A stretch of DNA of 59,151 nucleotides, filler included, from Dugesia japonica (taxonomy: Eukaryota), in assembly GCA_001938525.1 (NCBI GenBank). It is 5 parts of 5 records of this genome, joined end to end, with 100 filler letters (N's around TTAATTAATTAA, not from the genome) between each part and the next. Parts side by side here need not be neighbours in the genome. Positions count along the whole stretch, not along the records: positions 10,636 to 19,160 come from MQRL01546168.1; 4 more parts are not named here. One strand, given 5' to 3'. This document shows, piece by piece, positions 6,570-38,759 of this stretch (within the stretch, counting starts at the first letter, position 1; each line of letters starts with the position of its first letter). The translations under genes were made by a program, and so were the position numbers. Below the pieces are notes generated by a model. The model was not told the origin of the DNA and made no database searches. It saw only the letters and a program-made list of their open reading frames with translations.

Positions 6570-6785
6570 AAAGCTTCGCAAAAATAATTTTTGTTTTTGA
6601 TAGTATATCGAGCTTTCGACTTTGTATTCGTCAGAAAAAGTTAATTCCTGATAAAGACAAAGTCAAAAATTCGAAATACTATCAAAAACAAAACAACATT
6701 TTGATTGAAGCTTTTATTTTATTGAAATCTCAAAAACGATCAATGGTTACGTACAACAATTATTCTCGCAATAATTATAATTGTG
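6570..6785. repeat. Inverted (palindromic) copy of the hammerhead-bearing dispersed repeat
   Basis: Imperfect palindrome centred at ~6641; its arms match copies at 20955-20994/25035-25150, 38060-38275, 54458-54612 and 57185-57325. Confidence 0.75.
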
Positions 6786-7290: not shown

Positions 7291-7569
7291 CAAAGACAAG
7301 ACCGGAAAATTTTGTTCCGTTTAAGCGAAAGTTCTGTTTAAGCATTTCCTATTATATAATTTATATAAAAATAGAATGATAATGCAAAATAAAACTTAAC
7401 ATTTATTTACGATTATTATTTGTTTTGACTTTTCCCTAAGAATTTTTCTTGAAGATTATTTTCAATATCTAATAGCTCGTATTACACTGAAAATTATAAT
7501 TAATCAATCTTTCAGCGCTCTTGTTCTGTTTAACCGGGGTCTATTTAAGTAGGTTACAGTTATTATATA

Positions 7570-8362
7570 TACCGAAAATACGAGTATTTCTAACAAACAA
7601 TATCAGTATTGTCAGTATTTTAATTTTTTTATCGGAATCTATAATACCGAAAATACCAGTATTTCTAACAACCAATACCGGTATTGTTAGTATTATAAAA
7701 TTTTTCCATCAAAATCCATAATACCGAAAATATCAGTATTTCTAACAATATCGGAATTGTCAATATTTTAATTTTTTATCAAAATCTATAATACCGAAAA
7801 TACCAGTATTTCTAACAAAAAATATAGGGTATTGTCAGTATTAAAATTTTTTTTAATTAATTAAAAAATTGAAATGTAATTTTAAATGTATTTTTCAATC
7901 AAATCTATAATACCGAAAATATCAGTATTTCTAGCAACCAACACCGGCATTGTCAGTATTATAATTTTTCAGCCAAATCGATATTACTGATAATACCAGT
8001 ATTTCTAACAAACAATACAGGTATTGTCAGTATTCTAATTTTTCACCAAAAACTATAATACCAGTATTTCTAACAATCAATACCGGTATTGTCGATAATA
8101 CCGAAAATACCAGTATTAGTTTAATTTCGAAAAATTAGTCTTTACAAGAAATACCGGTATTGTCAGTATTCTAATTTTTCATTAAAAACTATAATACCAG
8201 TATTTCTAACAATCAATACAGGTATTGTCAGTATTCTAATTTTTCATCAAAAACTATAATACCAGTATTTCTAACAATCAATACCGGTATTGTCGATAAT
8301 ACCAGTATTGGTTTAATTTCAAAATATCAATTTTTACAAGAAATACCGGTATTGTAATCCCT
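7570..8362. repeat. Tandem array of ~50-60 bp units (AATACCGAAAATACCAGTATTTCTAACAAxCAATACCGGTATTGTCAGTATT) ending in a hAT-like TIR
   Basis: About a dozen units; ends AATACCGGTATTGTAATCCCTA (TAGGGATTACAATACC on - strand), typical of hAT MITE ends. Confidence 0.75.
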
Positions 8363-8472: not shown

Positions 8473-10182
<1,710 letters not shown>

Positions 10183-10635: not shown

Positions 10636-11519
10636 ATATTTGGACATCTATGTGGAAACTACGTGCGAAGAGCGTACGATTTCTTGCATTAGCAGAAATC
10701 TGAAGTGGATACCAACTGTATCTGTCAAAATTTAACGATACAGTGAGGTATAAAAGGAAATCAAAATCAGTGGAAAATCATTCTTGAAAATTGGATTTTC
10801 TGTAGCTCTTATTAGTCGACTAAACCGAACTTTTAAGTAGCATCTACATTATCAACGGAAAAGCTAAAAGATGTAAATCATAGAAGTAAATTTTTAAATT
10901 TATTTATAATATTATTATGTCAATTATAAAACTGAAAACTGAGGTGATGGTCGTCATAGCTAGCCTTGTTGGTATTGACGATCACCATAACTTAGATATC
11001 CACTGCACCAGATCATCNNNNNNNNNNNNNNNNNNNNNNNNNNNNNNNNNNNNNNNNNNNNNNNNNNTATTTCTAAAACACTTACAAGTTTCAGAAATTT
11101 ATTATTGAGGAAAAAACTTGAGGAAAAACATAGGACATCTGTGAGCACATAATCCGCTACAGAATTAACAAAAAATAAAAATAATCCCGCCCATATTTGG
11201 ACATCTATGTGGAAACTACGTGCGAAGAGCGTACGATTTCTTGCATTAGCAGAAATCTGAAGTGGACACCAACTGTATCTGTCAAAATTTAACGATACAG
11301 TGAGGTATAAAAGGAAATGAAAATCAGTGGAAAGTCATTCTTGAAAATTGGATTTTCTGTCGCTCTTATTAGTCGACTAAACCAAACTTTTAAGTAGCAT
11401 CTACATTATCAACGGAAAAGCTAAAAGATGTAAATCAAAGAAGTAAATTTTTAAATTTATTTATAATATTATTATGTCAATTATAAAACTGAAAACTGAT
11501 GTGATGGTCGTCATAGCTA
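10636..11519 (+). repeat. Near-identical direct repeat (10636-~10962 vs 11193-11519), period ~557 bp
   Basis: Both copies start ATATTTGGACATCTATGTGGAAAC and differ by only a few substitutions; bounded by gaps. Confidence 0.85.
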
Positions 11520-14500
11520 NNNNNNNNNNNNNNNNNNNNNNNNNNNNNNNNNNNNNNNNNNNNNNNNNNNNNNNNNNNNNNNNNNNNNNNNNNNNNNNNN
11601 NNNNNNNNNNNNNNNNNNNNNNNNATAAATTTAGACTCCGTATTATGAGATAATGTTCTGAACGCGAGGGATACAAATATCGTTAAAAGGAAGGAAACAT
11701 ATCTTGTTTGGAGAAGTGAAAGTTAGCGATGTTTTAAGAGATGAATAGTGTTCAGAGATCTTGAGCAGAGAACGAGAAGTGATATTATGAGAGATAAATA
11801 TTGTTAGTATGAGTGAGATAAATTGGTAAAGAGTATACACGAATTAGCAACATGTATATGAGATTTAGCATGAATATATGAAATAAATGTTTAACAGTTG
11901 ATAAGTGGTGGTTGCGTTAACTCTAATGTAACGTTTAATGACTATAGTATGAGAAATATTTTCGGTTTTCAATAAAAATATCAAGTTGAGTTAATTAGTT
12001 GTTTAATACACGATTATATTATGCCACTTTAATATCATAATTATTTATTTTTTGTTTTGATTATTCATGATTATTATTGTTTTACATATTATAAAATTTT
12101 AATTGATAATAAATTCTCATTAACATAATTTTAGGTATTGTTGGGATGAAACACGCCACTAAAAAGGAGACAAAGTCGCTACAGAGGAGATAATGGTAAA
12201 AGTAAGACAAGAACCATAGTTACGAATGGAAAATACACAAAGATAATAGAAATAAGAAGAAGAGAGTTGAAAACCCATTAGTGGATGAATAAAATAAAAC
12301 TGGGTAATCAAAATCAGTATCCATTCATGCACCTCAATTAAAGTAAATTAAAATTTATTATATGAAGAAAAAAAGAAATACATAATAAAATAATTAATTA
12401 ATAGAAAAATATCAATTAATTAAACAGAAAAAATAAATGAAAATAAACTCCAAATCAGTTTTCCTCAAATAATTTTACTCCCGAAAGTCACAGGGACTCG
12501 AAGGAAGAAACTTTGAGTCGGGATTGGCATCGGGCAACCAAATTTCCTAGTTCAAAAGCGTTGCGACCATCAGGAGGACCGTCATAAGGTTGGGAAGATT
12601 GAACCAATGAGAACCTGGAAAATAAACATCTAACAAAGAACAAAAGCTCATCTGATTATCCAAAAATGACTACCAACAGAATCACAGAAAAGTCTGTAAA
12701 ATTCCAGAAAAGTAGCATCAACGCCAATGGAAACGTACTATTTTAAATTAAAAATAACTGGCCAATGCCAAACAAGTCGGGGTGTCTCGGGAATCGTATA
12801 AAAGAACCTTATGTTTAGTAACAAAAACTACAAAAAACAAAACTTAACAAAATAATTGTCGGCAATTATAACGAGAAGATATTTCAATAAGAGCAATTGT
12901 ATCCGTGATAGCTACGAAAGAAATAATTTTGGTTACTAATTAACTAAAATTTCCATCAATTCGACGAGAAACATTTATCCTCTTCGAAGTAACTTCGAAA
13001 AAAAAATTTTTTTTTGATATTGATTACTATTATTTTCAAGGACAAGAAACGTACCACAACAGTATTATCCAGTCCAGAAAAATAGCCCCCGGAGAAAATC
13101 ATTATTCGAATAGCAATATAATAATATTAATCATCTCGTGAACCTGTTGAAGAAAGTCCTAAATTTGTTCTAGAAAAAGTAAATTTTTATTTTTCGATTG
13201 TACGAATAATGTTGTTATCGAAGTTTACATGTTTATTCTAATAAATCTATTTTTCTAATTTGTAACTTCATATATTTAGCTTACTGATAATATAGTTCAA
13301 ATAATAAATTGGGGTTTATATAAAATTTTTAGACCTATTAGTTAGTCAACATAAAGGCAGGTTCCACCACATTGTGTATTAAAATAAATCAGACAATGTC
13401 AAACATTGCTAATAAAGCTAAGACATGAAATCAGTATTTAATTTCCAAGTCAACATCAACTGGGGAATGAACAAATTTTTATAAATAAAAAAAACTAAAT
13501 TTCCAACAGTAATTATATAAAGATTACTTTGGTCGATTTCTAATTTTCCGAAATGATAAACTAGCTGAGAATACCACACTGAGAATGCCATAATTTAACA
13601 TTCAGTTATTTCTTGCATAAAATTCCTTTTTCAGGTTTCATTAAAATCCATTCCCGTAGCAGAGATAAATGTCCAGTTTCTGATAGACAGAAATTGATGA
13701 ACAATAACAGAATAGTCATTGACCGTCATATCACAAACTCGTATTAATCATAACAGAATTTGACGCCACTCTGATTTATCTGCATACATACGACGACACG
13801 CATACAAACTCATTACCAATAGTAAAAAATCGGGTCGCTAAGGAAACCGTCGTCATGCAATAATAACGGTGAAAATTTAAAATACAAATTATTATAATTT
13901 TTGGCTATTTTATAAATGTTAAAGGTAGTTTTATGGACTATCAAAATTACAAATATTACTATTTATAATACTCAACTTATGAAAAGCTTTTATATTTTTT
14001 GTTTTTCTGTATAAGTTATATCATTCAGGGAGTTTATGCCGGGTTAAAATTATCATGCTAGATGACAATAGTATTATTAGGATTCCACACCGCTATCGGG
14101 AATAATCCCAGTACGGGTAGTATTAAGATAATTCTACTGCCGGTTGCTATCATTGTAATACGGGTTCTAGTGTTATTGATCGAATAAGCTATTATGGTTT
14201 TGCGTGATAATCTCCTCATAATTAATAGTTATACTAGACCATGAACCTTCAGTCTATACCGACAGTCAGGAATGAATAATTTTTCTTTTCGCGTTCTGAA
14301 TTAAATATTACGATTAATAATTTCACTCTTCAGTTATGCAGACGAAATTATATCGTATCCTGAGATGGATCAGAAGGCGGCGTCAAATTAGTCGGTCTAA
14401 GCAATTATTATCCCACTTGTTGACAAAAGGGAAAATCGAACATCCGGATAAAACAGACCTTTGTTGTCTCGCCGAGATGTTTCCTTCAAAGAGGAAAGTA

Positions 14501-14628
14501 GACAGGGACGAGGGAGGACTGTTGTTTTATGGATATCCTTCTGATAAAATAATATTTTTGTGCCTGTGTTTAAATAAATTATTTGCTACATCTTGATGCT
14601 ATGTTTAATATTCTTTTGTTATCCTTAG

Positions 14629-17045
14629 AAATGGAATCCATATGGGAGCGGATCGTAGATAGGCGCACCCGTCGAATAATTTTCCGGCGGCATCACAACC
14701 CTTACAACCGTGAGGCGGGGACAAGTCCAATCTACCTCCCGTCGAGGCCGCTGTTGCACGTATCCAGAGCTTCGGGGAGCGTCTGAACTACAGCCAGTGG
14801 AATGGGCCAGAGCGTAATCACGTTACCCCATTCCGTTACCAGCCTCCAGCCCCCCCGCCAGTAGTCCAGGCCTTCATTGCCAATATGCTCTATCGGATTA
14901 GAGAACCTTCTGGGACAGAAGACGCCGAGAATACGGCTCCAGCGGACAATAAAAATTCGGCATCTTGATGTCGCTATGATTTTAAATATTTCTTGTAATA
15001 AATAAGTGTTTAAGTTGTCTTAATCTACTCGTTAATTCATTAAGGGGNNNNNNNNNNNNNNNNNNNNNNNNNNNNNNNNNNNNNNNNNNNNNNNNNNATG
15101 TCATATAATAAATGTTTTCGAGAATCATTGGCTTAAAATTTTTTATAAGTTAACGGAAAATTATTGAACCCGAATAGAAAGGTTTATGGGTGTGCACCTC
15201 CCATTAAGAGAGAGGTCAACCACCATAAACTGAATACCTACCCTAGGGGTGGTAGGTAAAATTCTTGAAATGGTTCCCCTGAGGGCTGTTTTTATTTTCC
15301 CAGCCACGATATCTTTCAACCAACTCAGGTGGGACCCCAACAGTATTCAAGTTAATATAAGCTGTTTATTCGGTAGAAAAGATGCCATGTGAGATAGACG
15401 GGAAACGAGAGGAGGATCATTCATGATGGCGAACGAACCTAGAGTGAATTAGAGTGACTAAATAAAAATGAAAATTAACGATTTTGCTTCACGATATCAA
15501 ACTGTTAAACTGTTAATACGGTCATATACTCTCGGTTCGGTCAAGAATGATGAGTGATCCTGTACCTACTCAAGAATTAACGACCCTGATAGTAAGGATT
15601 CTTTTATAACTAGAAAAGATTTTTATTAACCATCACGCTAGTTGAGTTGAAAACTATAATTCACTAATTTGATAATCATGATTGAAATTTTGTTATGCAG
15701 ATGTCACGTCCGATCAAGCTAAAAGAAGTCGAAGCGAGTTTGAGCGACGACGGGTGGAGGTTTTGGACCAATGCAGCAAATGACATGCCGAATTCATGTG
15801 ACGCACTAAGGCTGGAAGGTACCAATACCGAGCCCTGGTAGATGATACAAGATAGAATAAACCAGAGAGAGGATCGCATTCAAATACTAGAGAAGGAAAT
15901 GGCTATTCAGAAACAACAACATTTCGAGAAATTGAATCGATTGAAGGAGCAAATCAGGGAACAAGAGCAACAGTACAAACATCAAATAACCAAAGTCGTC
16001 ATGAATCAGGAGGAGAGAGAAAAAGACTAGTACGACTGCTGACAGATACGATCGGGCTAAATAACCAGCAACATAGATTGATCACTACAATGAGGGCCAC
16101 ACAGTTGAAGGCTGAGGAGTTTACAAAGCAAACAACTCGACTAGCTAAACNGATTGAGACCGAACTCAGCTCCATATTGATGCCGTTAGAAAAGAGTGAT
16201 TATATTGAAAATCAAGATTTGTGTCAGTATTAATATAGCTTTCCGTTTTGATTCATTTATTCATTTCAATGTTATTTTAAAAGAAAATGTTTGTTTTAAG
16301 TATTGACTGACACTGGGAGTAGTATACTAAGGTTAAATAAAGAAACTTATAATTTTCACAGTAGTTAACGCCATCTATATATTAAAAAAAGGTTTTCTTT
16401 ATTACTTAACTTATTTGACTTCTATATTTCATTCAGTGCGAAATATAAGAAAATTAACATTGGGTACTTCAAGAGCAGATCTTTAAAAAAATGGGGTTCA
16501 ATGTACAAAACGTTGCAGAACGAGAACACAGTTTTGCAACAGAAGAACAATCATTTAAGAGATGGGAACGCGAAGTTAAGAGAAAGAGATTTGGCGTTGA
16601 CTCAAACATGTCGCACAATGGCCGACGTGATAAAATCTTATGCTGATCAAGAAGGGGTACTAATTGCCACCGTCCGTACCCTCAGTCAGGTGTCGAAAGT
16701 AGACAAGGAAGTTGGCCAAGTGGCTGCCGAGGAAGTGATCGATTTGAATGGTTGAATGACTTGTTTTAACAATAAATATCACACATCTTACAAATTTTTA
16801 GCCAAGAAATATGTTCAAAGGAATTAAATTGAGTGTAACCAGAAGAAGATTGAAAACACAAAACGGGATACCACATAGTCCCGCATGGACTCGGGGTGGA
16901 TGTAGCAACACAGGGAGTGTTGCCAAATTTCTGCTGGCTCCGGGGTATCTGCCCCTAGAAGATAACGAGATAAAAGGAATGACAAGAAAGAAGTACCAAG
17001 AGTTATAAGAGAGGAAATAAAANATCAAAACCTCGGAGCTCAACA
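14629..17045 (+). pseudogene. Unknown multi-segment coding cassette, copy A (segments ~14631, 15701-16030, ~16480-16755, ~16803-17045), coiled-coil-rich
   Basis: Each segment aligns at the protein level with segments at 31548-31675 (+) and 36700-37899 (-); several follow pyrimidine-rich AG acceptors; family not recognised. Confidence 0.6.
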
Positions 17046-17131: not shown

Positions 17132-17640
17132 TTACACTAGTATTGCTCTGTCTGATGTAATTTGGATTTCATTTTCGAATACTCCATAGATTATTACATA
17201 TGCTGGTGTAGTCAAAGCATATCAAAATTTGATATCCAAACTCATATTCCCATGTTGGAAAAATTCACTCTGATTATTATCGAAATCTGGAGCAAGTATG
17301 AAGGTAAAGAATGGATGTTCGTTTATAAACTCTTCAAAAGTGTTTCCACAATTCATTTTCTTGTTTAGATATCCCAAATTTTTAACTACTGATTGCATGT
17401 ATTATGTGCTGTAATTATCATTTAGAAAATCTTGAATATATGATTCTCGATAATCACTGTTTTTTGAAAGAGTTATAGATTTGACATTGAAATGATCAAA
17501 ATTCGAGCTTAAAGTTTCAAAGTTTCCATTATATTGATATGTAGTTTGAAATTTTACCAACAAAAGGATTTGTAATCGACGATTTCCAAAGATTTGCTCC
17601 TTATTAAACGTTGTACTATCTTTACTGATTGCATAAACTA
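17132..17640 (-). mobile_element. Polinton/Maverick major capsid protein (double jelly roll) C-terminal remnant
   Basis: One frame with two stops: QYNGNFETLSSNFDHFNVKSITL...DFLNDNYST*YMQS..LGY..NCGNTFEEF..FTFILAPD..GNMSLDIKF*YALTTPAYVIIYGVFENEIQITSDRAILV*. Matches my recollection of the Polinton MCP C-terminal pattern (FNGS..NPFNFxHF; AFDLxPD; GxLxLxLxF; VIVYxEFxNxIEI). Confidence 0.7.
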
Positions 17641-17756
17641 AGTAAAAAAGGCAATTTGCTGATGAAAATAGGAATATCTATCAAGAAATTGAAAAAGTTT
17701 TTGATTTACGCTTCATTGTTGGTTAGTAGTTATTGTAAAAATAATTTCAATTGCAA

Positions 17757-17875: not shown

Positions 17876-18096
17876 NNNNNNNNNNNNNNNNNNNNNNNNN
17901 NNNNNNNNNNNNNNNNNNNNNNNNNNNNNNNNNTTGTAAATTTCGTTAGAACTATTTGTTCTAATTTACAATATTTATCAGTAAACAATAAACAATGTAA
18001 ATTTTGAATATTTTAATTTATTGGGTTAAATGATGACTGTATAAATCCATGGTTTCGATTGTAATCTCAGGATATATCAACTAATTTAAAGATATC

Positions 18097-19160
18097 ATGA
18101 TAAGATCTGAAGTGCCATTAAATTATTATTCTTATTCATTTTTAAATAACGTATCTGTTATGATTTTATTACCAAATTTCTCTGTTGAAGAATTTAGCGT
18201 TAGTAGAAAGGTTTCTCTTTATGAATTGAAAGATATATTGATGAAAGAACTCAAAACTAATCCAATATACGAAAAGGAATTTGCTTTAAATAATTTTTCT
18301 TCATACATATTCTGTGGCGTTAATAGGGAAGCTGAAATTGAAGAATATTATGATGAATCACAACTTCTTTGTAATTTAAATTTGATGGATTTTGTTTTAA
18401 ACTGTTTAGAACGGAAAGGAAATAAACTTGAATCTCAGTTGACATCCGTTATCAATCATTGTATTGGATTAAATTTAGATAATATTCCGAAAGAAAATGA
18501 TGATTTGGAATTGTTGTTTGCTAGAAAATCATATTTGGAAGTTGTTCATAGTGAGCATGAAAATTTATTGAATAATAAAAATGAAGTTTTACTATATCAA
18601 TATGGAGCAGATTATAATGAGTACACTACACTAACTATTAGACAAATTCTTCAATCAATGAGTAATTTATATATAACATCTATAATTAGTTATAAAACTG
18701 CCGATAAATTTAAATGTATCATTAGTATATCGAAAGAATATACTGTTAAAGACACAATTAAAAAAATTCTTTATGATAAAAAAGAATGCTTTGAGTATGA
18801 TGTAAATACAGATTTAAGAGTTTGGTCTTCAGAAAATGCATCTAAATATGTTTTAAAAATTTCATCTTTGGATTCATATTTAATAAAACCAGATGATAAA
18901 TTAATTTATTATGAATATGTACAGAGTTGTCTGTACAATAACGAGTTTCCAATTTTAAGTTTATACCCGATAAGTTATTTAGAGAACATATCAATTACTC
19001 AATTTCTCATTCCTTCATATTTTTATCAAAATATGCCACAGATTAAACGTAAAAACCAAGTAGACATTACCAGTAAATATTTTTCGATATTTCTCAAAGG
19101 TGCTCAATTAATTTGTAAAGAAAATTCTAAGTTATATATCCGAGCTGCCATGTTTAATGG
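18097..19160 (+). CDS. Class I PI3-kinase catalytic subunit p110-like, 3'-partial (adaptor-binding domain, Ras-binding domain, start of C2)
   Basis: ILLPN...SLYELKDIL...SSYIFCGVNREAEIEEYYDESQLLCNL (ABD); YVLKI..DSYL...LIYYEYVQSCL (RBD); KLYIRAAMFNG (C2). Open for >1 kb and cut by the scaffold end. Confidence 0.85.
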
Positions 19161-20994: not shown

Positions 20995-23900
20995 TGTAAG
21001 AATTAAAAATTGAAAATTGCAATTTAAAGTTTGAAGAAGAAAATGTTATAAAAGATTTCAAAATTTTTTTAAAATATTTAAAAACTTTGTTTAAATATTC
21101 AGGTTTCAAAAAATAGTTTTTGAAGATTCGAAATTTAATTTCATAAATAAAATTTTATTGAATTTAATGAACTTATCAGAAGTTTTTTTTTGCAATTAAC
21201 ATGGTGACCAACGCTTCAATGGACCTCATTTGAGAAACCCTACAACCAGGAATTTACCGGCATGGGGATGACATTGAACAGTTCATCAATGATTGTACCA
21301 AATACTTTGAATGTATTGGTGTAAAGAAAAAGGATATAAAAAAGCTTAATTGATTGAGAATTAAGAGAAGCATATGACTGCCGAGATGAATTACTAGATT
21401 TTGAGGACCGACTGAAGAAAGCGTTCTACAAAAAGACTATTCTAATACAAGACTTGGAACAAGCTTTAAAGTGCAAGAGAATGGATAAACACGTTTATGT
21501 GTACAAATAAAAGATTTTAGCACTGTTCGATAAAATCTTTGCTCACAAAATAGACAAAGAACTGATGACAAAATAATTAATATACAATAGTTGCCGCGAT
21601 AAAAGGAGGCAAATAAAGATTAAAGGAGACAAACTAGCCAACTCGGAAGAGATATTTGAAACTATAAAAACAAATGATGAACTAAAAGAGAACTTGAAAT
21701 AAACAGACAATGTACATACGGTAGAGAGTTACAGCAATGCATTCAAAAGAGGCATGGCAAATGCACGTTTCTCAGGAATTAAACGAACTCAACGTGAAAT
21801 TAAAAAATAAATTAAATGTTGGTCATGTCAGAAGATAGGTTATATCAGCAGAAGTTGTCCGGAAAAGAAAAGAACGTTTTACGCATGCGGATCAGAGAAT
21901 ATAAGAAGAAATTGTAATAAATTAGATGTTCAAAATGTGGAAAGAATTGACATCATACAGAAAAATGTTATACTNNNNNNNNNNNNNNNNNNNNNNNNNN
22001 NNNNNNNNNNNNNNNNNNNNNNNNNNNNNNNNNNNNNNNNNNNNNNNNNNNNNNNNNNNNNNNNNNNNNNNNNNNNNNNNNNNNNNNNNNNNNNNNNNNN
22101 NNGGAGGACATCAGTCAATAATGGATTCATGAAAAGAGATTGCAGTAGATGTGTAAACGCAATGGTAGAAGAGGATTAAGAGTGCATAAAGAGAGGAGAT
22201 AATATTTATTATTATGATGAGGACTAGTGGAAGAAGACAGTAGTGGAAGAAATGAGTCCGAATCTTTTTGGAGGACTAGACATGTAGCGCCAATTTTGAT
22301 ACTGCTTAAAGAAAGAAACAAAGGATTATGAGGATGAACAATGGATCTGCAACATATTCGCAAGGTTTGGCGGAAATTGAGGATGCTGAAAGAGAACACA
22401 GAGCTTTAAGAATTTTGATGACAAAACGAGACGAGAAACTGGAAAAGGTAATAGTTTAACATCGAAGAGTATTCGTGGCAGATAACTTAGATGTTGGATG
22501 TACAATGCTGGCGGAACATAAGATAGTGACAAAGGATTATCCAATAAATACGAAGCCTTGAAGACAACCCATTAATCTAGAAGAAAAAATAGATACGGCC
22601 ATAAAACATTTTGCGGAAGCTAATATTATGAGAAAATGTAATTCGCAGTAGAACACACCACTAATATGCGTCTGGATTAAAGAAAGAAAGGATATGAGAC
22701 TTCGCTTGGACTTCAGGAAACTTAACAAAGTTGCAGAATGACCGGCTTCCCAATGCCAAACGTGGAAAAATGTTAGACAATTTGTATGGGGCCAAATATT
22801 TCAGTACCATAGACTTGGGAAAAGCGTATTAGCAGGTACCGTTAGAAAATGAGTTACAAGAGAAAACAGCCTTTTCGACGAAAATTGGTCAATATTGCTT
22901 CACAAGAATGTCATTCGGCATAGCAGCAGCCCAGGAATATTCCAAGAACTAATAAGAAAAGTAGTGGACGGTATAGAGAAGGACTATCTCAGAAGGACTA
23001 AAAGAGCATTATATAACTCTGGATCAGGTATTAAAGCGGATCCAAAAGACAGGGTTGTGATGTCACCTTAGTGAAATTTCTTGGTCAAGGAATTCGAACA
23101 TATCTAATGAAAATCGAAGCCATCAAGAATTTTGAGAAACCCAAATTCGTAAAGAGACTAAGAGGCTTCCTCGGAATATGCAATTATTACAGGTTGTTCA
23201 TAAAAAATTGTTCAAAGAAATTAAGAGCCCTAGAAGAATTATGTGGAAGCAACAGCACCAAGNNNNNNNNNNNNNNNNNNNNNNNNNNNNNNNNNNNNNN
23301 NNNNNNNNNNNNNNNNNTAGAAGCACCTATTCTTGGATTCCCTGATATAAAGAAAACATTTATTTGAGTTACTGACGCCAGCTTCGACGCAAAAGGAGTG
23401 GTCCCATCACAAAATGATGACGATGGTAGAGAAAGAGTTATTGCTTACGGCTCACGTGCAATGACATCACATGAGAAGGGTTACTGTATCACACGGAAGG
23501 AATTACTAGCAATCTACTACTTCTGCAACCACTTTAAACATTTTTTATATGGAAAAAAATTCATAACGAAGACTGATCACAAAACCATCGTATTCATGAA
23601 AAAGACAAACAAACCGATAACACATCAGTTCCAGACATGGATGACTTACCTTAGCAACTTAGACATGGAACTAATATATAGACAAGACGAGAAGCAGGCA
23701 AACGCAGATATGGTCTCAAGAATGAAATCCGGAACGTTCACTCAATGTCAAATGCAACATGAAGATCCTGAGATTGAGAAGATGAAAACAAGACAGATAA
23801 ATCAGATGATAAAGATATAGAGATGTAAATGGCAATAAGGAATAGAGGAAATCAAACTAATCAAACGAGATATTCAAAAAGGAAAGAATTCAAAGTATAG

Positions 23901-25034
23901 AGTCGAAAGTAATATAGTGAAAACAAATGATGGAAAAATTTGTATTTCAAAAGAGAAAAGAATATCATTGATCAAAGAGGTATATACATTGTTAATACAT
24001 GCAGGAACAAAGAAAATGATCAGATATATAATCAGCAACTGCTACATGGAAGAACTGAATAAGATAATCACAGAATTGATAAGACAGTGTGAAGCACGCC
24101 AAAAGAACAAAGTTAATACTGTAGCAACAAAAGAGACAACAGTAAAATTAAGCGCAGTTTGTCCATTTGAAAAGATATATATGAACATATGTGGGCCTTT
24201 TCGAGAGACTGTGAACAGACGAAGATATATATGTGAAATAATAGACCAATACTGTCGATATGTAAGCCTAAGGGCAATCAGTAAGCAAGATGATGAAACT
24301 ATTAAAAAAGTGATAATGGAAAAATGGATTCTGAGATTTTGAGCACCGAGAGAAATTCATGTGAACAGTGGTAAACTTTTGGATCGAAAAACCTCAAAAA
24401 TTTGATGGAATCAATGAATATAGAAGTACATTTTTCAAGTCCATACCATCACAACACAAACTGAATTATAGAGAGATAATTCCTCACAATCAGAGACTGT
24501 ATTAACGCAACCACAGATGAAGATAGAAGAAAGAGACATTGGGGATATCACCAGCAGAATTGATATTCGGTAGGAGAATTCACTGAAAACAATGGTTCGA
24601 CAGCCAAAGAGATGACAAAGAGTCGATGAAAGAAACATGTACAAAAATGCAACTTCTATGCTGGAGACGAAATATTGCTAAAACTAGAATAAAAGACAAT
24701 GAAAGATACGCTGGCCCATACAAGATCACGGAGAAGGTACATGAGAGAAGAAATCGTATACGAAATGCAAATGGAAAAGTGCTAGAAAGGAACGTAGAAA
24801 AGCTTAAACAATTCTTTTAATCAAGGGGGAAAATTAGGAAAATTACAATTTAAAGTTTGAAGAAGAAAATGTTATAAAATATTTCAAGAATTTTTTAAAA
24901 TATTTAAAAACTTTGTTTAAATATCTAGTTTATAAAAATTAGTTTTTAAAGATTTGTAGATTTGAAATTTCGTTTCATAAATAAAATTTTATTGAATTTA
25001 ATGAACTTTTCAGAAAGTTTATCTGTAACTAACA
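20995..25034 (+). mobile_element. Full-length degenerate Gypsy LTR retrotransposon (5' LTR 20995-21201; 3' LTR ~24831-25034)
   Basis: TG...CA 5' LTR matching the 3' LTR; PBS TGGTGACC at 21202; PPT AAGGGGGA at ~24823; gag CCHC-like at ~21817; RT (DFRKLN, FSTIDL); RNase H (TDAS, ELLAI, TDHK); integrase; TSD-like GTACC/GTAAC. Confidence 0.92.
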
Positions 25035-25252
25035 GTAACCATTGATTGTTTCTCAGAATTCATTAAAAAAAAGCTTCGATCAAAATTTGTTTTTTTGGTA
25101 TTTAAAAATAATTTTTTTATTTCGATTTTGTCTTTGTCAGAAATTGACTTAATAATATTAATAACATTATATATTCTGAATTAATATTATATATTCTGAT
25201 AACTATTTTGTATTATTTTGAATTATTTTTTCATATGGTTTCTATTGTACAG

Positions 25253-28200
25253 GTTATGCTGGAGTTGAATATTCAGGTCAAACTATTCCACAGAAGCCAC
25301 TGTGTACATTAGAAGTAAAACTTAATAATTCCACTCATAATTGCGACCAATTGGTTCATCTCGCTGAAAGTTTTTCACATAATGGACAAATCGAACATGA
25401 CTCTAAAGGTCGACCGTTAACCGAAGAAGCCCAGAAAGACTGGGTTAACATTAGTAAAAATAAATTAAGGTTTGAATCTTTTTTTAATTTTACTAAATTT
25501 AGGTAATTCAGTTGATACTATTGCACGGTCAGATTTAGATCTTCGTGAAGTAGCACAGGAGGTTGGTAGTGATTGGCCAACTCTAGCTAAGGAGCTAGGA
25601 ATGACGAATAATTTTATTAATAAATTACAAATTGAACATATTAATGAAGAAGAAAAAGCATTACATTTATTAATTTCTTGGAGTGAGGACAATAAACATA
25701 TTGCAACGGGAAATGAATTGGATCGGGCTTTGCGAAGAATTGGTAGAGAAGATGTTGTTAAATCTTGTATGAAAAATTTTCAGCGTGTAACTGAAGAGGA
25801 AGAACAAACAAAAGTAAATTTTCATTTCAAGTGCATTCATTAAAAAAATAGTTAACTAAATCACATCAGTTTGCATCATTTATTAAATGCTAATATCTCA
25901 AATAAATTTTTTATATACAGTAAGCAAAAAAATAATTTTATCAATTTTAGTGATAGTAATCGAATAAAGTGATAAGATTATTTTTTTGCTTACTGTATGT
26001 TAAAATAAATATAAAAAATTTTCACAAAAATACTTTCAATCTTTGCATATTTTTTTGTCTATTACTCATTATTAAAATTATTTTCAATTTATGTAAGAAA
26101 TTTTGCCTGAGAATTTATATCCATAGAAATCAGAGAAATAAAACGTTTTCAATTAAATTTCTAAATTAATTATTTCATTTAATATAATTTTTGTATTATC
26201 TTGTTTTATTTTTCTTATATAGTATTTTTTTTTAATTTTGTTTCATAATTTTTAACATTTCTGAAAAATGGAATTTCGGTTTTTATTTATGAGATATTAT
26301 TACGTGATTACCATGTATTATCTTGCCTTTTTTATAGTAATTATACCGAGGACTCTTCTCACTGACTTTGTATTAATTTTGTTAGACATTTTAACTATAA
26401 ATTTTGACAATAATTACAAAAATTAACGTAACGAAATCAATTTTCTTTTCTTGCTTAAAATAAAATTATTTTACTATTTTTTTTGTAAGTAATTTTATAT
26501 AGATATTTGTTAAAAATTTTATGTTGCGAATAGCTATTATAATCACTACTTAAATTCAATACGCCAGTCTTATTTAGGTCGTGTTTCTCTATTTCATTTA
26601 TATTGTCTATAAGATTAAAATGATTGGATAAACGGAAATAGAAAAATTATTTTGTTTAAAAGCTAAAACCTGCAAAACATTTGAAAAAGAATTAGTATCA
26701 GTTTATTTTGTTTTTATACTGTGTTTTAATTCTATTTTCTTCTCTAAAAATTCTAGCTATCATTATTATTCAATTTCTCACGAAACTGAAATCAAATTTA
26801 TTGTTTTAAAATTATTATTAATTAAGTTTATGCATTAGAGAAAAATAGAAATAACAATTTAATTAAAGTGTATTATTTTATTAATACGAATTTTTAATTA
26901 ATGAAAACTTATTGTCATTTTCTTTACTTTATATTAATAGTAGTAATTATTTCAAAAAATGGTACTTCAATTAAAAAATAAAACTTTTAAAAATCTAAAT
27001 TTTGAATTATTTTAAAATAAATTTTATTGAATTCTTTTTTTGGTCAAATAAAATCCAAATTAAATATTGAATATTATAATAGGCTAGACATCAGATGAGT
27101 AGAGAAGGAACAAGAGAAGCATCTTTTGATGTAGACAGCCAAAGTGAATTTCAAGCTCTTTCTGATGAATATGAACAACGAACACATGTTGAAACACTTC
27201 CGACAAACACGGAACAAGGGAAAATGGAACCAGTAGAAATTCCAGATACAGATATAGTTCGAGAAAGTGAATCAATGACAACTAGTGATTTTGAAGATCA
27301 CGATGAAAATCAATCCACTGTGCCTATTGATAATCGTGAGTTAATAATTGAGTCAATTAAAATTTATTATATTTCAGCATTTTTTGAAATCGGTATAATT
27401 TGTTTACATTTCTAGATATTGACCTAAGTCTATTAAATCAATTCGATGAACTGCAATTATCTATTCAGCCGATTACAGATGAAAGNNNNNNNNNNNNNNN
27501 NNNNNNNNNNNNNNNNNNNNNNNCCTTATAAAATATTTCAGTAATAAGCATATTATTACAGTAATTATTAAATGTAAAATAGAATAATTAAGAACTGCTA
27601 ATGAAAATGTGTATTATACAACAATAATATATGTTAAATATAGTAATTATCCAATTGATTATGTTTACAATTATATCATCAAATAGTTAAATATATTAGT
27701 TTTCAGACATACAAGCAAACATTCAATTACACAATATTAAATAATTAAATTAATTAATCTCATATCACAATAATAATGATTCATATTATATTGTAAATTA
27801 TATATATAAAATTTACAAATTACGAGTTAAAATTGTAAGTGTTCTACAATTTATTACTTACAAATTAAAAAATAGATATAATTTATTAATTAATTTAACA
27901 TTATAACTCCAGAAATTCGTTTTCTTTAAACATTTCATTATATAAAAATTAATAGGTATCTCACAAACTTTGTTATGATTTAATTTAAAATATTTAATAA
28001 ATGTAATTTTAATAAATTTTGTTTAATAAGTTTTTCATACTTTATTCTCATCTTTCTGATCCAACTTCATTATGCTCTATCAAAATGTTCAATTCACTGT
28101 TATTACCGGGTTCTCGTGTTTTAGCCCAACACACACACACACAAAAGCTGGCTTACAAACCATGAAAGTAATGCTCTGCATCTGATGGGATGGGAAAGGC

Positions 28201-30065: not shown

Positions 30066-30116
<51 letters not shown>

Positions 30117-30118
<2 letters not shown>

Positions 30119-31975
30119 GGGGTGAAACACCCGGTTTTAACAAGGGAAATCCAAACCAAGGATCTATATTAGAAATAATGAGCTAAAGAAAGAGGCTAAT
30201 TAAGAGTAATTATTAATTTGGTAAATCCAGAACAATCATATTAATTAAGAATTGGAATAAAAAGGCAAATGAAGAAGGAAAATATTAGAGGGACGTAATG
30301 TCAATGTTAATAATCAGAGAAAAATATGATTATCAATTAAAAATGAGAAAATGATAGATAAAATAATAATTAATTATCAAAGATAAAATTAATTAATTTT
30401 TTGCAAAAAAGAAGAATAATTGACGGAAAATCAGTTTTTGAAAGATATCTTCACCTTAGAAGATCATAAAAGATTCTAGTAAGAAAAACTGGACAGAAAA
30501 AGTGACAGAGCAATAGAATTTTTCAACAAGATTACCTTAACATTACCTCGTGTGACGGATGAGTAGTGATTCAGGCGTAGTACTATTTCTCCTTTTACGG
30601 ATTAATTAAAGTTGTATTATTAGCATTGAATTCATTAAAATTGTTGACATACAAGACTACCAACGCAGGAATTGATATATTTACAATGGTTGAGGGTTAT
30701 TTAGTTTGTACTTGACTGTAAATTGGCAATGCAGTAATTACTAAAGTTATGGATACCGCTATTCATAAGGATAATGCCATTGTTAATACGGATATCGGTA
30801 AAATAATTATTATAGTTATTACTGTTAACATTATTACTGGTAATATAATCGGTAGTAGGATTATTTTATTATTATTAAAAATATAGTACTATTGCCTTAG
30901 AAATTAACATCATTGATATGTCTACCACTATAAATACGGTGAATTACCATTAAAAGTAGTTAGAGAAATTCCGATCGCGGTTATTAATATTAAATTCCCC
31001 ATTATTATTAACGTTATTATTAATTTTGGTATTACCCATATGAGTAATGTCTGTACACTTTTTAACATTATCATTCTATTACCATCAATGTGTTTTATTG
31101 ATGCAAGCACTAAACTAAGGCCGACATCTTGCAAAGCTTCTTTTTACCGGTATTGCATGGTGGGAGACGGGTCAGTGTACAGTGAATTTTTCCTTCCTAC
31201 GACGCCTGCATGAATTATATTAATTTTTTAAGATCTACAGGTTAATGATGATCATTAATTTAACTTAATTTAATCATACTTATTATTAATATAGTAAAAA
31301 CTATCATAAAAATATTAAACAGACTTACAGTGTTTCGTCGAGATGTTCCCATTGAATTTCACTGTAGATATAGACGCAGAAAACTCATCATCTTGTTAAA
31401 ACTATTACAATTCGTTATAATTTTATTAAAATAAATAATAATTCGGTCAATTTGTTACTCTTACACAATTAGTTTTGGTTAGGTTTCACATATCATATTA
31501 TTATTTTAATTCTTTTATCGACAATAAAGTTTAATTTATTTTTATAGTGGAGTATAAATATGAAATCATCCTCGATCGTAGAACTGGTCGCACAGTTTTT
31601 AAGCGCTATAGGAACCCGCACAATCGAGATGATGGAGTTCTTGTTGACCGATACAATTTGTCAACAGAGATATGAACGATGAGAGGCAGTGGGACACCAA
31701 TGAGCACTAGGCCTATTATGAGTGGAATGGCCTTGATTGAACCCGTGAAGTTTTCCACTCTACTACAAGCACACAGCCCGCCAATAATGATGACTTCCAT
31801 ACTTCGAGTGAATGGCGTGAAGGGCCTTCTTTCGTTCGAATCACTACAATTTAATTTGACAATGTTTCAATCAATAATGAATGAAAAGTTAAATTTAGAT
31901 GAATTGAGAATTTTTGACGAGAACAAAAGCGAGTTGCATTTAATAATGGAAAGTATAGAAAGAGAATTATATTGA
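30117..31975 (+). pseudogene. Unknown cassette, copy B, 5' part (loosely colinear with 12130-14970)
   Basis: EYKYEIILDRRTGRTVFKRYRNPHNRD (31548) vs ESIWERIVDRRTRRIIFRRHHNPYNRE (14631); shared TTGGGxTGAAACAC and AAATCAGTTTT anchors upstream. Confidence 0.5.
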
Positions 31976-32996
31976 TGTTTAAACAGCAGAAAAATTTTTA
32001 CTATTGTTTAGATTCATTGTTTTAGAGAACTAATAAAATAAGAAAAATATGATATTGAAAATAATGACTTTTGTGAAAATATATCACTTGAAGAAGCAAT
32101 CGAAAAGGATCTAATTATTCCCGAACTTGTATATGTTAATTTAGAAAGCCAAAATAAATTAATAAATTCAAATGAAATGATCGAATGTGGAATATTAAAT
32201 GCATTAGCAAATGAAATCAAAAGAGAGGAAGAAGGGGGAGAAAAATAATTTTAATGAGATTTCAAAAGAAACTAAAACATAAATAATATCACCAATAGAG
32301 ATAAAGAAGTTGTTCCTTTTTATTTATTTTTGTATGAAAAGCTTTTGCGATTAACTTGAAAATTTAATTTAATAAATTAAATTCATTCGATCTTACTTCA
32401 AACTTGGTTGATTTATTAATTTTATTTACAAATAAACATGTTCTTTAATAGAAAAAGAAATTTGTTTTAATTAATTGAATTTGTTGGTTTAATGATTTAA
32501 TTTCAATTGTGTTGAAATACTTTTGTTTAAACTATATTCTTTGGTTCCAAATATTTAGGAAATCCTCATTAATAGTTCATTTCATTTAAAACAATTTGAA
32601 TTTGTTTGAATAATAATTTTGCTACGGTTAATGTAATAAAACAATTTTGCGGTTAAGGGTAAAAATAACGACATTTCGTTTTTCTTTCTCGTCTATTTGA
32701 ATGAAACAATAAATTTTTTGCCGACGAATTAATTCACATTCAATAGATTACTAAAGAAAATAATTGAAATAACAAATTAAACTAGAAATGTAGTATCACT
32801 GAATTTATTAAAAGGATTTTTCTTTAAATCAGACATCTGTCTATATGAGAATTAAGACGGACTAACACTCTGGTCCGCTGGACCCAAATAAAAGGGTAAG
32901 CTCATGCACTCCTTTTAAATGGAGAGTCACTGGGGTCATCCCGAAAATGATCTTAGGACAATCATTAAAATGCTTGTGGTTTTCACGAGTGTGCCC

Positions 32997-35982
32997 CTAC
33001 AGAAAAAATATCTTTTTATATTCGTGAAAACCCAACATAAGTAGTGACTGAAATGGTTTGCAAAAATAAAATATTGCCAGCAGCTCCGTTCTTGTTCTAC
33101 AATACCTCAATTCGTGATTATTTGTTGCGTGTGATCCATACGCTATCGTTTTTTCTTGTCCATTGTTGTCAATTTTTAATAATACGGCACCGATTGTATT
33201 GTAGCTTGCTTCTGTATCCAGTATGAATTCTTTCCTGACATCCGGAAACACTAAAATTGGTGGCTTTGTTAACGCTTCTTTCATATCTCTGAACGATTGT
33301 TCGCAGCTCTCCGTTCATATTAAGTTCTTATTGTTTACACTGCACAGATTTTCTAGTTCTCTAGACTTTTTTGCGTAATACTTTATGAATCTTCTGTAAT
33401 AGCAACATATCGCCAAGAAACTCCTCAATCCTTTCACGCATTTTGGTCTTTCGTATGTCTGTATTGCAGCCGATTTTACTTGATTGGTCTGAACTCCTTT
33501 TTCACTTATGATGTGTCCCAAAAATTTGATCTCTGTTCTTAGTAATTGACATTTTGACGGTCTCAAACGTAATCTTGCTTGATGTATTTTATTAATTACT
33601 TCATCCAGTGTTTTATAATGCTCTTCCCAGTTTTCTGAATATTTTAGAATATCTTCTAAATACACCGTTGTTCCTTTTATTGTACCTAAAAGCTTTGTCA
33701 CGAGTTCCTCGAATGTTCCAGGCACCACAGCTATGCCAAACGACATTCTATTGAAGCAGTATTGATCTGACTTTGTTGAAAATGCTGTTTTATCTTTTGA
33801 CTCCTCTTCATCCGCAACTTGATAGCTAGCATTACATAAATCTAATGAGCTGAAGAATTTAAACTCGCCTAATCTGTCCAGAATCTATTCTACATTTGGC
33901 ATTGGAAATGTTTGTCTTTCCGTAATAACGTTCAGCTATCGAAATTCGAAACAGAGACGAATGTCTTTCTTTTCTTTTTCCCAGATATATATTAATCGGT
34001 GTTGCATGTTGAATTGCAATTTCGTATATTTCCATTTTCAAAAAGTTTTCGTACCTTTTTGTGCATCCTATGTCCCATTTATCCCATTTTATTAAAGATA
34101 TTTGAATGTTTTCTTATCTCGCTCAAAGCTTTTTGACATTTTTCTTCATCTTTATTAATTCTTCCAATATGTTGCTCGATATTGCAAATCCGATCTTGAT
34201 TATCTTTTTCTGTTTTATCTATCCAATGTTGCTCTAATCCAAAACTGGTCTGTAACTCAATGCTACCAATTATGCTTAGGATTACCTTTTCCACAACTAT
34301 GAAATTAATCTATCTAGTACTATTGCCGATCCTCACTTCTACCTCAAATCCCTCTTTGGTACTTAATGAACTATCGTTAGCGCAACGCAATTTATCCTTG
34401 GTTGTTATTACCGAGATATCCTTGAATTTGTTAAACACATCCATACCCATCACATAAATTCTTGCTCCGGTATCCAATAAGCATTCAAACTCCATGATTT
34501 GGATCTTTATCGCAATACTTTATTTACCCTCCATCATATCATATCTAATCAAATCTTTTCCCATTCTTACACCGTTGCGATAGTTGATTCCACTGATGTT
34601 TCTCACTTGATTTCTGATACAAATTTCTTTAAAAATTATAAACGCGTTCTTACACATCATCCTCTATATTATTGATTTGACTATTTTTACTATAACTACC
34701 GATATTTCGGGGATCACCCATTAGATTTTGAGTTCTACAGCTCCTACCATTCCCCCTATTGACAGAGCCTCTATGTTTGGGTTTCTCCTTGATTCATATA
34801 CGTTTGCGTTATATCTGTTGTTACTATATCTAACGTCTATATATCTGTCGTCTTCATATTCCTTATTACTTGTTTCATCATTTTCCACGGCATTGATGTT
34901 AACATGCCTACCCGGAAATGGGAGTTTTTTTACCTCATATTTCATATATTCCGAAGGATATTCGTTTCATCTTTTGTAATCCATCTTTGTGAAACAGTAT
35001 TCGGTTTAATAACCGTTCTTGTTGAATTTTCCGCACTTTAGCTTGCTGTACTGTCTTCTTATATGCACTATATTTCCACATGCGCATCATGTGGGAGGCT
35101 TTCAGTTTGGATACTCCCAACTTATGTGTCCCAATTTGTGACATTTCCAACATTCTATTTTCTCTGTTATGTACTCCCTTCTGGTATTTGACTCTTTGTA
35201 AGTTGATTCCTGCATATTTGGTACCGTTATTTTTGGTTCCGTTTATAATGCCTCCTTGTAGCTACGCATCAATGTTATTACTTTGTCTTTTTGGCGATTC
35301 TTGAAACGTCTCTGATTATTTCTTTTATTTCTTCCAGGTCGGAAACTTTTTTCTTTCTCTTCTCTCTCTTCTCTCTACTTAACTCTTACTTTGCCTTCTT
35401 CTATACCGTTGCGTTTATCAGTATTGCTGATATTAACAACTCTTTTGGCAGATTATGGCTAAGCAGATTATTTGCCAGTTTTTCTACATCGTGGAAGAAT
35501 ACCTCATTATCGGTATCACCCAGCCTGTAACGAATAAATTCTTCTAGGTCTTTAAAAACTTCTCTTGATCTTTCCACAGTCATAGCCTAGCTTCATACCC
35601 CTTTACTTTGTTCTCTGATGCTTCATATCTTTCTTCATGATTCGGGTCTTGATCTTACCGATTACAATCTCTTGTAAATCTTTTGGAATTTCGGCCTCTT
35701 TGAAGGATCACCCGACGTCCCTCAAGAATCTGTCAAGATTGTCGCTTAACTTGAAAGGTCTTGGGTGTAACAAATCTGTTACTAAGTTTTAGCCTGACCT
35801 GGTTGCCATATTAGCAAGAAAAAGGCTATCTTCATAAAAAAACTGAATCAGAATAGTTTTAATATTGAAACAAACATTCGCAATAATTATTTTCTTGAAA
35901 TATTTTAAATTTCAAAATTTGTTTAAATATTTTAATTGCGCATTTAAATTTGAAATCAAACAATTCAAATATCATTCTCACA
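32997..35982 (-). mobile_element. 3'-truncated Gypsy element: 5' LTR ~35809-35982, PBS, gag, protease, RT, RNase H
   Basis: PBS TGGCAACC at 35801-35808 (-); LLDTGA protease; YLEDIL (YxDD); FILDTEAS..IGAVL; ELLAI. No integrase: the element is cut at ~33040. Confidence 0.88.
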
Positions 35983-36699: not shown

Positions 36700-37899
36700 T
36701 TGTTTGGCTTCTAGGTTTTTGGTGTTAATTTTCTATTCTCTTTATTTTGCTTGTTTTTCATTTTCCTTCTCGAGTATCTTTACTAAGGGTAGATACTCAG
36801 AAGCCGGTATAAATTTGATTAACACCGCCTGTGATGAGACCATCTACACTGTGGTTTGTGGGGGACTTTGCGGTATCTTGTCTTTGTAGAAAGTTTATTG
36901 GATGTGATTTGTTGCTACGTTTTTTTCTGTTAATTTCCATTTTTTTTAACAACTAGTCTGAAGAAAAAAGTTTCTTATTTTTATATACAGATCACGGAGA
37001 ACCAAAAATCGTTATTTCGGTGATGGCACACTTCTGATCAGTATTATTCTCGGTATCATACTCCCTCTAGAGAGTTTTCACATTAGCGAGAACAGCGGCC
37101 TCTCAATCCGTACATGATTTAACTATCTCTGCTAGCATGCAGTAATTTCTCTCGGACATCTCACACTCAATTGTTCTTGAAAAGTACCCATAATACTGGC
37201 TGTCTCTCTTATCTCTTTGTTCTCATTGGATAACTTCTTTAATTCCATCCTGTTGATCAACCAACAACTCCTCCTGAGTAGGTTAAATGGTTCTCATTGA
37301 CATCCTATAATAAATTTATCAGTTATCATAACATAAATCAATTTCTCATAATCATTATCCCAGAAATTTTCACAAGAGTTTAATCATTGGTAAGTGAATT
37401 TTCGGTGATTTCATTAAGTTATTAAATTCTCGACAAACATGAGGTTATTTCATTAACAAAATCCGATTGCTTCTCATATTCCTCGTTCTCTAACGACACT
37501 GATTTGATTAATGCTGCTAACCTGGAGGGCTCTCTCAATTGTTGTCGAGATTCGCTTTGCATGGCCCCCCAATTTTCCTGCTTGATTGACCTGCCGTCTC
37601 ATTATTTCCGATAACTGATGTTTATAGTTCCATTCTTGTTGATCGACCCATTCTTGGAGTAGCGTCAACTTTTCTAAGTTCTCTGTGGGGTTGTTTTCCT
37701 GGATCGCCAGCTTCTCTTTTATTTCTCGTATCTGTATATAATTTTGTCGTAGGCGGTCGTGGATAATCTACCAGGGTTCGGTGTCCACCCTCAGCGAATC
37801 CCTCAGTTCTTGCATACTATTAAGTGATTCGGTGGTGAATGACCATCCTCTTGGTACTAGCGATTTCTCTGCTTCTGCAAACATGATTCTCCTTGTCAT
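36700..37899 (-). pseudogene. Unknown cassette, copy C (homologous to 15701-17045)
   Basis: MTRRIMFAEAEKSL..GWSF..DTEPW*IIHDR..LAIQ..YKHQL; MLAEIVKSCTD*EAAVLANVKTL; IPQSP..KFIPASEYLPL. Same segment order as copy A. Confidence 0.6.
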
Positions 37900-38759
37900 C
37901 TAGACACAAATAATAATATTTTTTATAGGTCAGTTTGCACTATGTTAACACTGAATCTTTATCAATTAGTTTAAACAATCATTGACTCATGTATTTAATG
38001 GGCAAAAAATTACAGAAAAATCTCTCATTTTATTTTAAAGAAAAATCTCTGAGATATATAAATCTGATAATGATTCTTAAAATTCTAATATTGGTTGAAT
38101 CAATTAAAAAGTTCAATTCCTGAAGAAGATAATTATCGAAAATTTGGATAACTACCAAAAAAATAAAGAAAAAAAACAAAAGAACATTTTGATTTTAGTT
38201 ATTCATTTAATGAAATCTCAAATGCGATCAATGGTTAAGTCCAGCAACTATTCTTGTAATAATTGTAATTGTAAATTCTGTAATAATGCAAATTTTATGA
38301 AAGAATGTAAAAAGAACATAAAATTGGTGGATGATATCCTCAGTTCAATTACAAGTGGATATCTCATTATTTTATATAACGTTTTAAGAGCAAAGTACTT
38401 TGTTTAATTAATTTATTAACAACTTTGTAATAGAACCACCAAAAATAGTTCTTCACAAAAATATATTACAATTTAATATAAAACTAAGCTATTAAAATAT
38501 AAACATAATTATAATATATAACCGCAATCTGGCGATTTCGTATAAATTTCTAAATATAACATTAATTAGTTAATTTAGTTGTACTAATATCTTTCAATAT
38601 TTGCGCTACATAGAAAACATTTCTAAAAATACAACCAAAAGAAGCGTATGATCCAGTGAGTAGGAATATTATTTTTTCTGAAGAAAGCGTGAAAACAAAA
38701 AAATTATTATTATTAATTAGATACAAAAATTTAATTAACAACAAAGATGTGGAAAATCG

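Follow-up and report, generated by a model that had tools for sequence, protein, structure and literature searches.

A ~4.9-kb repeat with three short coding segments in the Dugesia japonica genome, a probable solo LTR of a giant Gypsy-like element

The window analyzed here is a stretch of 59,151 nucleotides from the Dugesia japonica assembly GCA_001938525.1, in which five scaffolds follow one another with a fixed linker between them (separators at 10536, 19161, 29966, and 39483). It is about 72% AT and contains (ATT)n tracts, decayed Gypsy elements, and host genes (cathepsin L, PI3K, and a death-domain protein). Two copies of one repeat unit are found in it. Copy A (12139..17045, +; ~4.9 kb, 4907 bp) starts with TGTTGGG and ends with CTCAACA; it contains an N50 scaffold gap at 15048-15097, across which its left and right halves were joined. 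Copy B, in scaffold 4, is split into a left half with the left end, block h, and gene d (30115..31990, +), preceded by an (ATT)n tract, and a right half with gene a, gene b, and the conserved right end (36702..37950, −; terminus AAACA at 36702). The family accounts for 8032 of the 57375 called bases and occupies two of the five scaffolds, no copies being found in scaffolds 1, 3, and 5. A first-pass annotation of 14629-17045 had paired four peptides of copy A (d, a, b, and c) with scaffold 4; all four pairs were recovered in place, and the order a-b-c is preserved between the copies, as it had proposed. The homology also extends to the left of that segment, as far as 12139/30115 (0/500 shuffles).

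Several other features of the window were recorded. Repeats of 98% identity flank N gaps at 10636-10962 versus 11193-11519 and at 53657-53818 versus 53869-54030; they are probably haplotype or scaffolding duplications and call for caution on the joins of this assembly. A tandem array of diverged ~150-bp units (7564-8355) also matches 5688-6060, and a short interspersed repeat with a core of ~100 to 150 bp occurs in all five scaffolds (5513-5680, 6636-6784, 25035-25150, 38169-38277, 54458-54612, and 57184-57331; copies 74 to 83% identical), with one copy just upstream of gene a in copy B. An Elp3-like gene (8473-9861, −) and the N-terminal half of PI3K p110 (18085-19160, +) are long uninterrupted frames with few or no introns, in contrast to the rest of the genome, which looks intron-rich. 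The best PDB match of the cathepsin L was 2o6x, presumably a fluke enzyme (E = 2.7e-24; next match, 1.7e-21), and the protein search gave no match for it at the cut-off used.

Genes d, a, and b are protein-coding. Gene d (14631..14968, +) lies between an AG at 14627-14628 and an AATAAA at 14997; its first 30 codons are Arg-rich and conserved (14631 versus 31547, +; 0/100 residue shuffles over scaffold 4 reach the score), and its downstream part is frameshifted and has no significant match in copy B (164/2000 shuffles). Gene a (15701..16233, +) consists of a 46-codon head, an amber codon at 15839-15841, a coiled coil, and a second break at ~16028; it shares 41% identity with 37899-37477(−) (15701 versus 37899, −; tblastn E = 6e-16; 0/100 residue shuffles over scaffold 4), and its tail does not match copy B significantly. 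Gene b (16504..16755, +) is a coiled-coil-like open frame of 83 codons behind an acceptor-like AG at 16436, whose match to copy B (16618 versus 37135, −) was reached by 2/100 shuffles over scaffold 4 and by 2/2000 in the interval between a and c; in copy B it is interrupted by two stops. Identities at codon positions 1/2/3 are.63/.73/.37 for gene d,.49/.65/.37 before and.48/.77/.32 after the stop of gene a, and.53/.56/.29 for gene b; the first and second positions are kept and the third are saturated, indicating long selection on the proteins. Of the four coding segments initially proposed, these three stand, but segment c (16858-17045; IPHSP..KFLLAPGYLPL) does not: its match is reached by 1/100 shuffles and is the best DNA match of the entire unit (z ~11-12), its identities are equal over the codon positions (35/47, 36/47, and 36/47), and many of its indels are non-triplet. 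Segment c is a cis-acting, non-coding sequence, not a gene.

At the DNA level, the unit is conserved mainly toward its two termini, and synonymous sites within the ORFs are saturated; in the DNA window comparison, 4 of the 60 windows were flagged, one of which (14175-14266) is off-diagonal and was counted as chance. The left-end block (12139..12510, +) is non-coding and matches copy B over 12141-12510 versus 30117-30486 (score 102, 0/500 shuffles); we infer that it represents the U3 start, on the integrase attachment side. Non-coding block h (14403..14510, +), matching 31267-31376 (0/500 shuffles), lies 120 to 170 nt upstream of the gene d acceptor and is a candidate internal promoter or leader. 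The right-end block (16770..17045, +), which includes segment c, shows ~76% identity, equal across codon positions (z 11-12), and is a candidate R-U5. In copy A it carries a TATA-like/AATAAA motif at 16771, an acceptor- or initiator-like site at ~16800, an AATAAA at 17016, and the terminal CA; the AATAAA at 16771 may just as well serve gene b as its poly(A) signal. Copy B has TATATAAAA ~30 nt upstream of TTCAGA, where the conserved right block begins, and copy A has AATAAATA at the matching position; the TATA-like box near the right end is clear in B and ambiguous in A. The AATAAA stands 29 nt (A) and 44 nt (B) upstream of the terminal CA. RNA folding at the unit ends gave unusual stability only in the right block of copy B (9/200 shuffles), a consensus fold of the two sequences had 1 compensatory pair of 14, and Rfam and tRNA scans over the window gave no matches.

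Read by eye, both copies have acceptor-like AG sites at matching positions ahead of d, a, b, and c, in keeping with the annotation; a strict T-rich acceptor scan, however, recovered 5 of these 8 sites, and control DNA carries 2.4 such sites per kb. In copy A, an AATAAA follows each of d, a, and b. The combination of an AG before and an AATAAA after each gene suggests separately spliced, polyadenylated mRNAs. Two further sets of frames were noted. A possible antisense ORF remnant, e, rich in Ile, Thr, Pro, and Asn (14061..14228, −), resembles 30600-31150(−) in composition, and its match to copy B is not significant (17/500 and 33/100 shuffles reach the score). After gene d, copy B also contains acidic open frames at 31676-31975 (99 codons) and 32042-32248 (68 codons) on the plus strand, the latter with an acceptor-like AG at 32011 and an AATAAA downstream; they may represent a fourth LTR gene, and they have neither a counterpart in A nor a Pfam or PHROG match.

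The annotation recognized no TE or host domain in the cassette, and the Pfam, PHROGs, and protein searches likewise assigned no family to it. Pfam scans (21, 11, and 11 proteins) and PHROGs (11 proteins) gave only weak coiled-coil-type matches, and the best of them, Baculo_LEF-11 (E = 0.0012, below the curated cut-off) and phrog_1536 (E = 7e-4), were rejected. A word-index search of 5.8 billion proteins with the two gene a copies confirmed 0 of 60 candidates and gave no named homologue. HMMER over 1.84 billion representatives with the same two copies returned one match at E ≤ 0.001, P0001 (E = 7e-4), an unnamed protein of 171 aa that forms a two-member cluster with the equally unnamed P0002 (176 aa), both from ~2-kb contigs; when these two were added to the word-index search, P0001 alone was confirmed among 709 candidates. 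P0001 and P0002 share with gene a the head motif (against P0001, 0/5000 shuffles for the head of A and 20/5000 for that of B), followed by a long helix, but are open at the column of the shared stop; past this column, P0001 by itself does not match gene a significantly (727/5000 and 3325/5000 shuffles). An AlphaFold model of P0001 (4-row alignment; pTM 0.36) shows one 90-residue helix with a low-confidence head, Foldseek found no match to it among viral structures at E ≤ 0.001, the protein atlas gave no family for it, and 0 of 81 pattern matches in GTDB genomes were confirmed, as expected. The searches run thus far gave the cassette neither a family nor a fold nor a parent element. Duplication of a decayed host gene with several exons, or of a gene cluster, could also account for acceptor-like AGs, coding selection, and coiled coils; it is nevertheless extremely improbable, given the single unnamed homologue, the sharp shared ends, and the separate start, stop, and AATAAA of every segment, with no splice donors noted at the segment ends.

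Both copies of gene a carry TAG at one alignment column, directly after TEPW (15839-15841 in A, 37770-37768 in B), and coding selection is found on both sides of this stop, each side being matched between the copies at 0/5000 shuffles; P0001 is open across the column. As a control, the decayed Gypsy copies of the window have a stop in one copy at 24 and in both copies at 1 of 1641 aligned columns, these columns being non-independent and such alignments tending to break at stops; the one double stop sits in a 95%-identical duplicate of 38 columns. Under a simple decay model, two independent stops would meet at the gene a column with a chance of 2 to 4%, for an observation made post hoc, so recoding of the stop is possible. 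We regard its retention during the divergence of the copies as somewhat more probable than chance coincidence, and as a roughly even call with the rarity of such stops weighed in. A retained stop would need readthrough, another form of recoding, or reinitiation; the codon that follows it is ATG in A, but not in B, and the RNA around it has no conserved or unusually stable fold (z −0.3 to −1.3).

The annotation had advised a search for element ends, and these were found at the limits of the A/B homology, which coincide with TGTTGGG (12139) and CTCAACA (17045) in copy A, so that the unit runs TGTTG..CAACA, i.e., TG..CA with a 5-bp inverted repeat. The start of copy B, TATTGGGG, follows the (ATT)n tract, and both of its ends fall in the same alignment columns as those of copy A; its right end, AAACA, keeps the terminal CA, and its left start reads TA, not TG. 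Possible target-site duplications are GGTAT/GTAAT around copy A (3/5 matches, or 3/4 if 4 bp) and ATTAT/AATAT around copy B (4/5 matches), and chance is a plausible source of both in AT-rich DNA. Reading of the flanks revealed no primer-binding site (PBS) 3' of the right end and no polypurine tract (PPT) 5' of the left end in either copy. The TG..CA ends, the conserved non-coding end blocks, and the absence of PBS and PPT together make up the anatomy of a solo LTR. The same lack of PBS, PPT, and parent in both copies would also be expected of a self-contained, non-autonomous element of 5 kb, or a small virus-like integrant, that has TG..CA ends, is devoid of gag-pol, and is moved in trans by the integrase of another element; an acceptor-like site and an AATAAA belong to every ORF, block h could serve as a promoter, and the homologue P0001 lies on a contig of ~2 kb. 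We consider such an element unlikely, since a U3-type end plus a U5-type end and nothing more is the definition of a solo LTR, inverted ends of 5 bp are too short for a DNA transposon, and the Pfam and PHROGs scans gave no replication gene inside.

In copy B, the two halves are in opposing orientation and face each other, which requires either an inversion or two truncated copies. Between them lies a decayed Gypsy gag-protease-RT-RNaseH region (33000..35812, −; RVT_1 E = 3e-17), whose own PBS-like TGGCAACC overlaps the gag start (35811), 890 bp from the end of the unit. This layout of LTR end, PBS, and gag start matches that of the decayed but complete-looking Gypsy in scaffold 3 (21006-25020, +), which has a ~200-bp LTR pair (21006-21185/24830-25020), a polypurine tract, and a PBS-like TGGTGACC overlapping its gag ATG; the scaffold-3 element seems to sit just upstream of ankyrin-like exons (25469-25843). 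The PBS-like site at 35811 leaves the cassette outside the LTR/PBS-gag interval, unlike the leader sORFs of MDG1-type elements, and the scaffold-4 Gypsy is most likely a separate element outside the unit. If a-b-c were instead the extended 5' LTR or leader of this Gypsy, comparable to MDG1 sORF1/sORF2, copy A would be a truncated piece. The cassette of copy B does lie upstream of gag on a common strand, and the MDG1 group, as far as described in the part of PMC11952523 used here, has two selected small ORFs before gag and an alternative poly(A) site. We judge this quite unlikely, however: the CA end and gag lie 890 bp apart, with unrelated AT-rich DNA in between; the PBS-like site coincides with the beginning of gag, an arrangement shared with the scaffold-3 Gypsy and its ~200-bp LTRs; the other decayed Gypsy copies (scaffolds 3 and 5) have no cassette; and no gag follows copy A. 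A second breakpoint, as an inversion in copy B would leave, was not found: no integrase remnant marks one, and no further part of the scaffold-4 Gypsy was found beyond 38000.

The arrangement of the halves also bears on whether they belong to one unit. The left half (ends, h, and d) and the right half (a, b, and c) could be separate repeats that scaffolding brought together in A and coincidence in B, as the N50 gap between them in A and their opposite orientation in B would allow; immediately to the right of the gap, copy A does not match copy B significantly (318/500 shuffles), and a syntenic hint at 15165/32879 is reached by 77/500 shuffles. Such a coincidence is very unlikely, because the halves occur together within 8 kb in two scaffolds and are absent from the other three, and because their outer ends are reverse-complementary in A.

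Next to copy A, 17132..17677 (−) translates into a decayed C terminus whose motif we take to be that of a Polinton major capsid; it ends ~90 bp from 17045. The distance and strand agree with the annotation, but its Polinton label has no library match: the Pfam, PHROGs, and PDB sequence scans yielded no capsid. The proposed link of the cassette to Polintons is not supported, as copy B has no capsid, and beyond the shared right end there is no A/B homology (167/500 shuffles reach the score) and no tblastx match. The capsid remnant is a neighbor of copy A and neither its carrier nor a part of the unit. In the left flank, 11646-11990 (−), on the same strand as the right-hand remnant, resembles what we assume to be a Polinton minor capsid C terminus, and neither Pfam nor the atlas assigned it a family (best atlas score 0.83); minor and major capsid remnants flanking copy A on one strand would mean insertion into a Polinton. 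Scaffold 5 contains Polinton-like remnants of what is presumably a DNA polymerase (52000-53278, −) and of a packaging ATPase (55517-55783, −; Pox_A32 E = 7.5e-4). Polintons have long terminal inverted repeats. That the unit is accessory cargo of a Polinton/Maverick would fit the capsid-like remnant 90 bp from its right end, the ATPase elsewhere in the window, and the standing of Polintons as a recognized class in planarians (PMC8532177, from the part consulted). It is highly improbable all the same, for the capsid counterpart is missing from B, the homology stops at CA, and the unit ends form an inverted pair of 5 bp, not a long one.

The earlier view of a repeated, once-selected, and probably spliced family is supported. 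The further proposal, that the cassette is cargo of an undescribed large mobile element, is retained as to its mobile-element origin; its LTR-type ends, however, favor a retroelement's terminal repeat over interior cargo as the reading of the unit. Copy A is probably a solo LTR of a giant, Burro-sized, Gypsy-like element whose U3 encoded spliced accessory genes. Besides the imperfect target-site duplications, the join of copy A across the N50 gap, the facing halves and TA start of copy B, and the chance frequency of acceptor-like sites, two further points count against the solo-LTR reading: the window contains neither a parent element nor a paired LTR, and genomic RNA would have to skip the internal poly(A) signals. 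The long U3 of such an element would encode three or more short accessory proteins (d, a, and b). In the intact parent, each would be expressed from the 3' LTR copy through a separate spliced sub-genomic mRNA, in which a common leader, supplied by cis-splicing from the 5' end or block h or else by trans-splicing, is joined to the AG before the ORF; each ORF would end with its own AATAAA, and the final ~250 bp would form the promoter/R-U5 end. Gene a would probably yield a 46-residue short product and, through recoding of the shared amber, a longer coiled-coil form. To judge by their predicted sequences, all three are likely regulators that would act on the host or on particle assembly, a and b through coiled-coil contacts and Arg-rich d by binding nucleic acid. 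Reverse transcription would place the accessory genes in both LTRs; recombination between the two LTRs would then remove gag-pol and leave solo copies, subject to later decay, interruption, and rearrangement.

Known systems, each cited here from part of its source, resemble the unit in some respects. Burro (GYPSM1) elements of dugesiid planarians exceed 30 kb in total, with internal regions of up to 25 kb, so a ~5-kb LTR fits their size, and occur in thousands of copies; they are similar to the unit in terminal-repeat size class, high copy number, accessory ORFs, and decayed copies in some species (PMC6431247). Their accessory ORFs and domains, in the internal polyprotein or in an ORF upstream, are MATH, BIR, BCL2, ankyrin, and Env (PMC6431247), all of which are absent from the unit, and the account of Burro in the part of that paper used here names no genes within LTRs. 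The window contains no internal region that could tie the unit to the ~5000-aa Burro polyprotein. The sag gene of MMTV likewise lies wholly within the U3 of a long LTR, but it is a single ORF, and the LTR of this mammalian retrovirus measures ~1.2 kb (PMC3621094), compared with at least three ORFs in ~4.9 kb here. Plant Ogre and Retrosat2/RIRE elements have LTRs of 2 to 6.5 kb, many solo LTRs, and fast-evolving extra ORFs without homologues (PMC6431247; PMC3485330); in plant elements with LTRs of >3 kb, however, the extra ORF is internal, before gag, and not within the LTR (PMC3485330). The MDG1 group of Drosophila shares short selected accessory ORFs, sORF1 and sORF2, and an alternative poly(A) site, but its sORFs lie between LTR and gag and are reported as unspliced, and sORF2 is a membrane fusogen (PMC11952523), whereas d, a, and b have no such hydrophobic segment by eye. 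By analogy with these systems, the unit would work like a U3-encoded accessory cassette. Planarians contain abundant, piRNA-silenced Gypsy, Burro, and Polinton elements, and the parts of these reports used here do not mention LTR genes (PMC8532177; PMC11410931). In the literature searched, mostly non-subscription main texts, no report of an invertebrate LTR with several genes in it was found; published repeat libraries may already contain the sequence of the unit.

The usual view is that LTRs do not code for proteins and that solo LTRs are inert promoters. The broader proposal, which we put forward tentatively and hold to be doubtful at present, is that an invertebrate LTR of ~5 kb serves as a multi-gene transcription unit, with at least three genes from families not yet known, separately spliced and polyadenylated, one of them switched between a short and a long form through programmed recoding at a conserved amber codon, and that every solo copy scatters the complete cassette through the host genome. 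The cassette yields three orphan protein families, along with a candidate site for recoding. If the unit is the LTR of a Burro family that is already catalogued, the repeat itself is known, and its genes are seemingly undescribed in the literature searched. If the proposal holds, thousands of solo copies of a gene-bearing giant LTR would carry protein-coding cassettes, and some of the repeat DNA left unassigned in these hard-to-assemble genomes would be accounted for.
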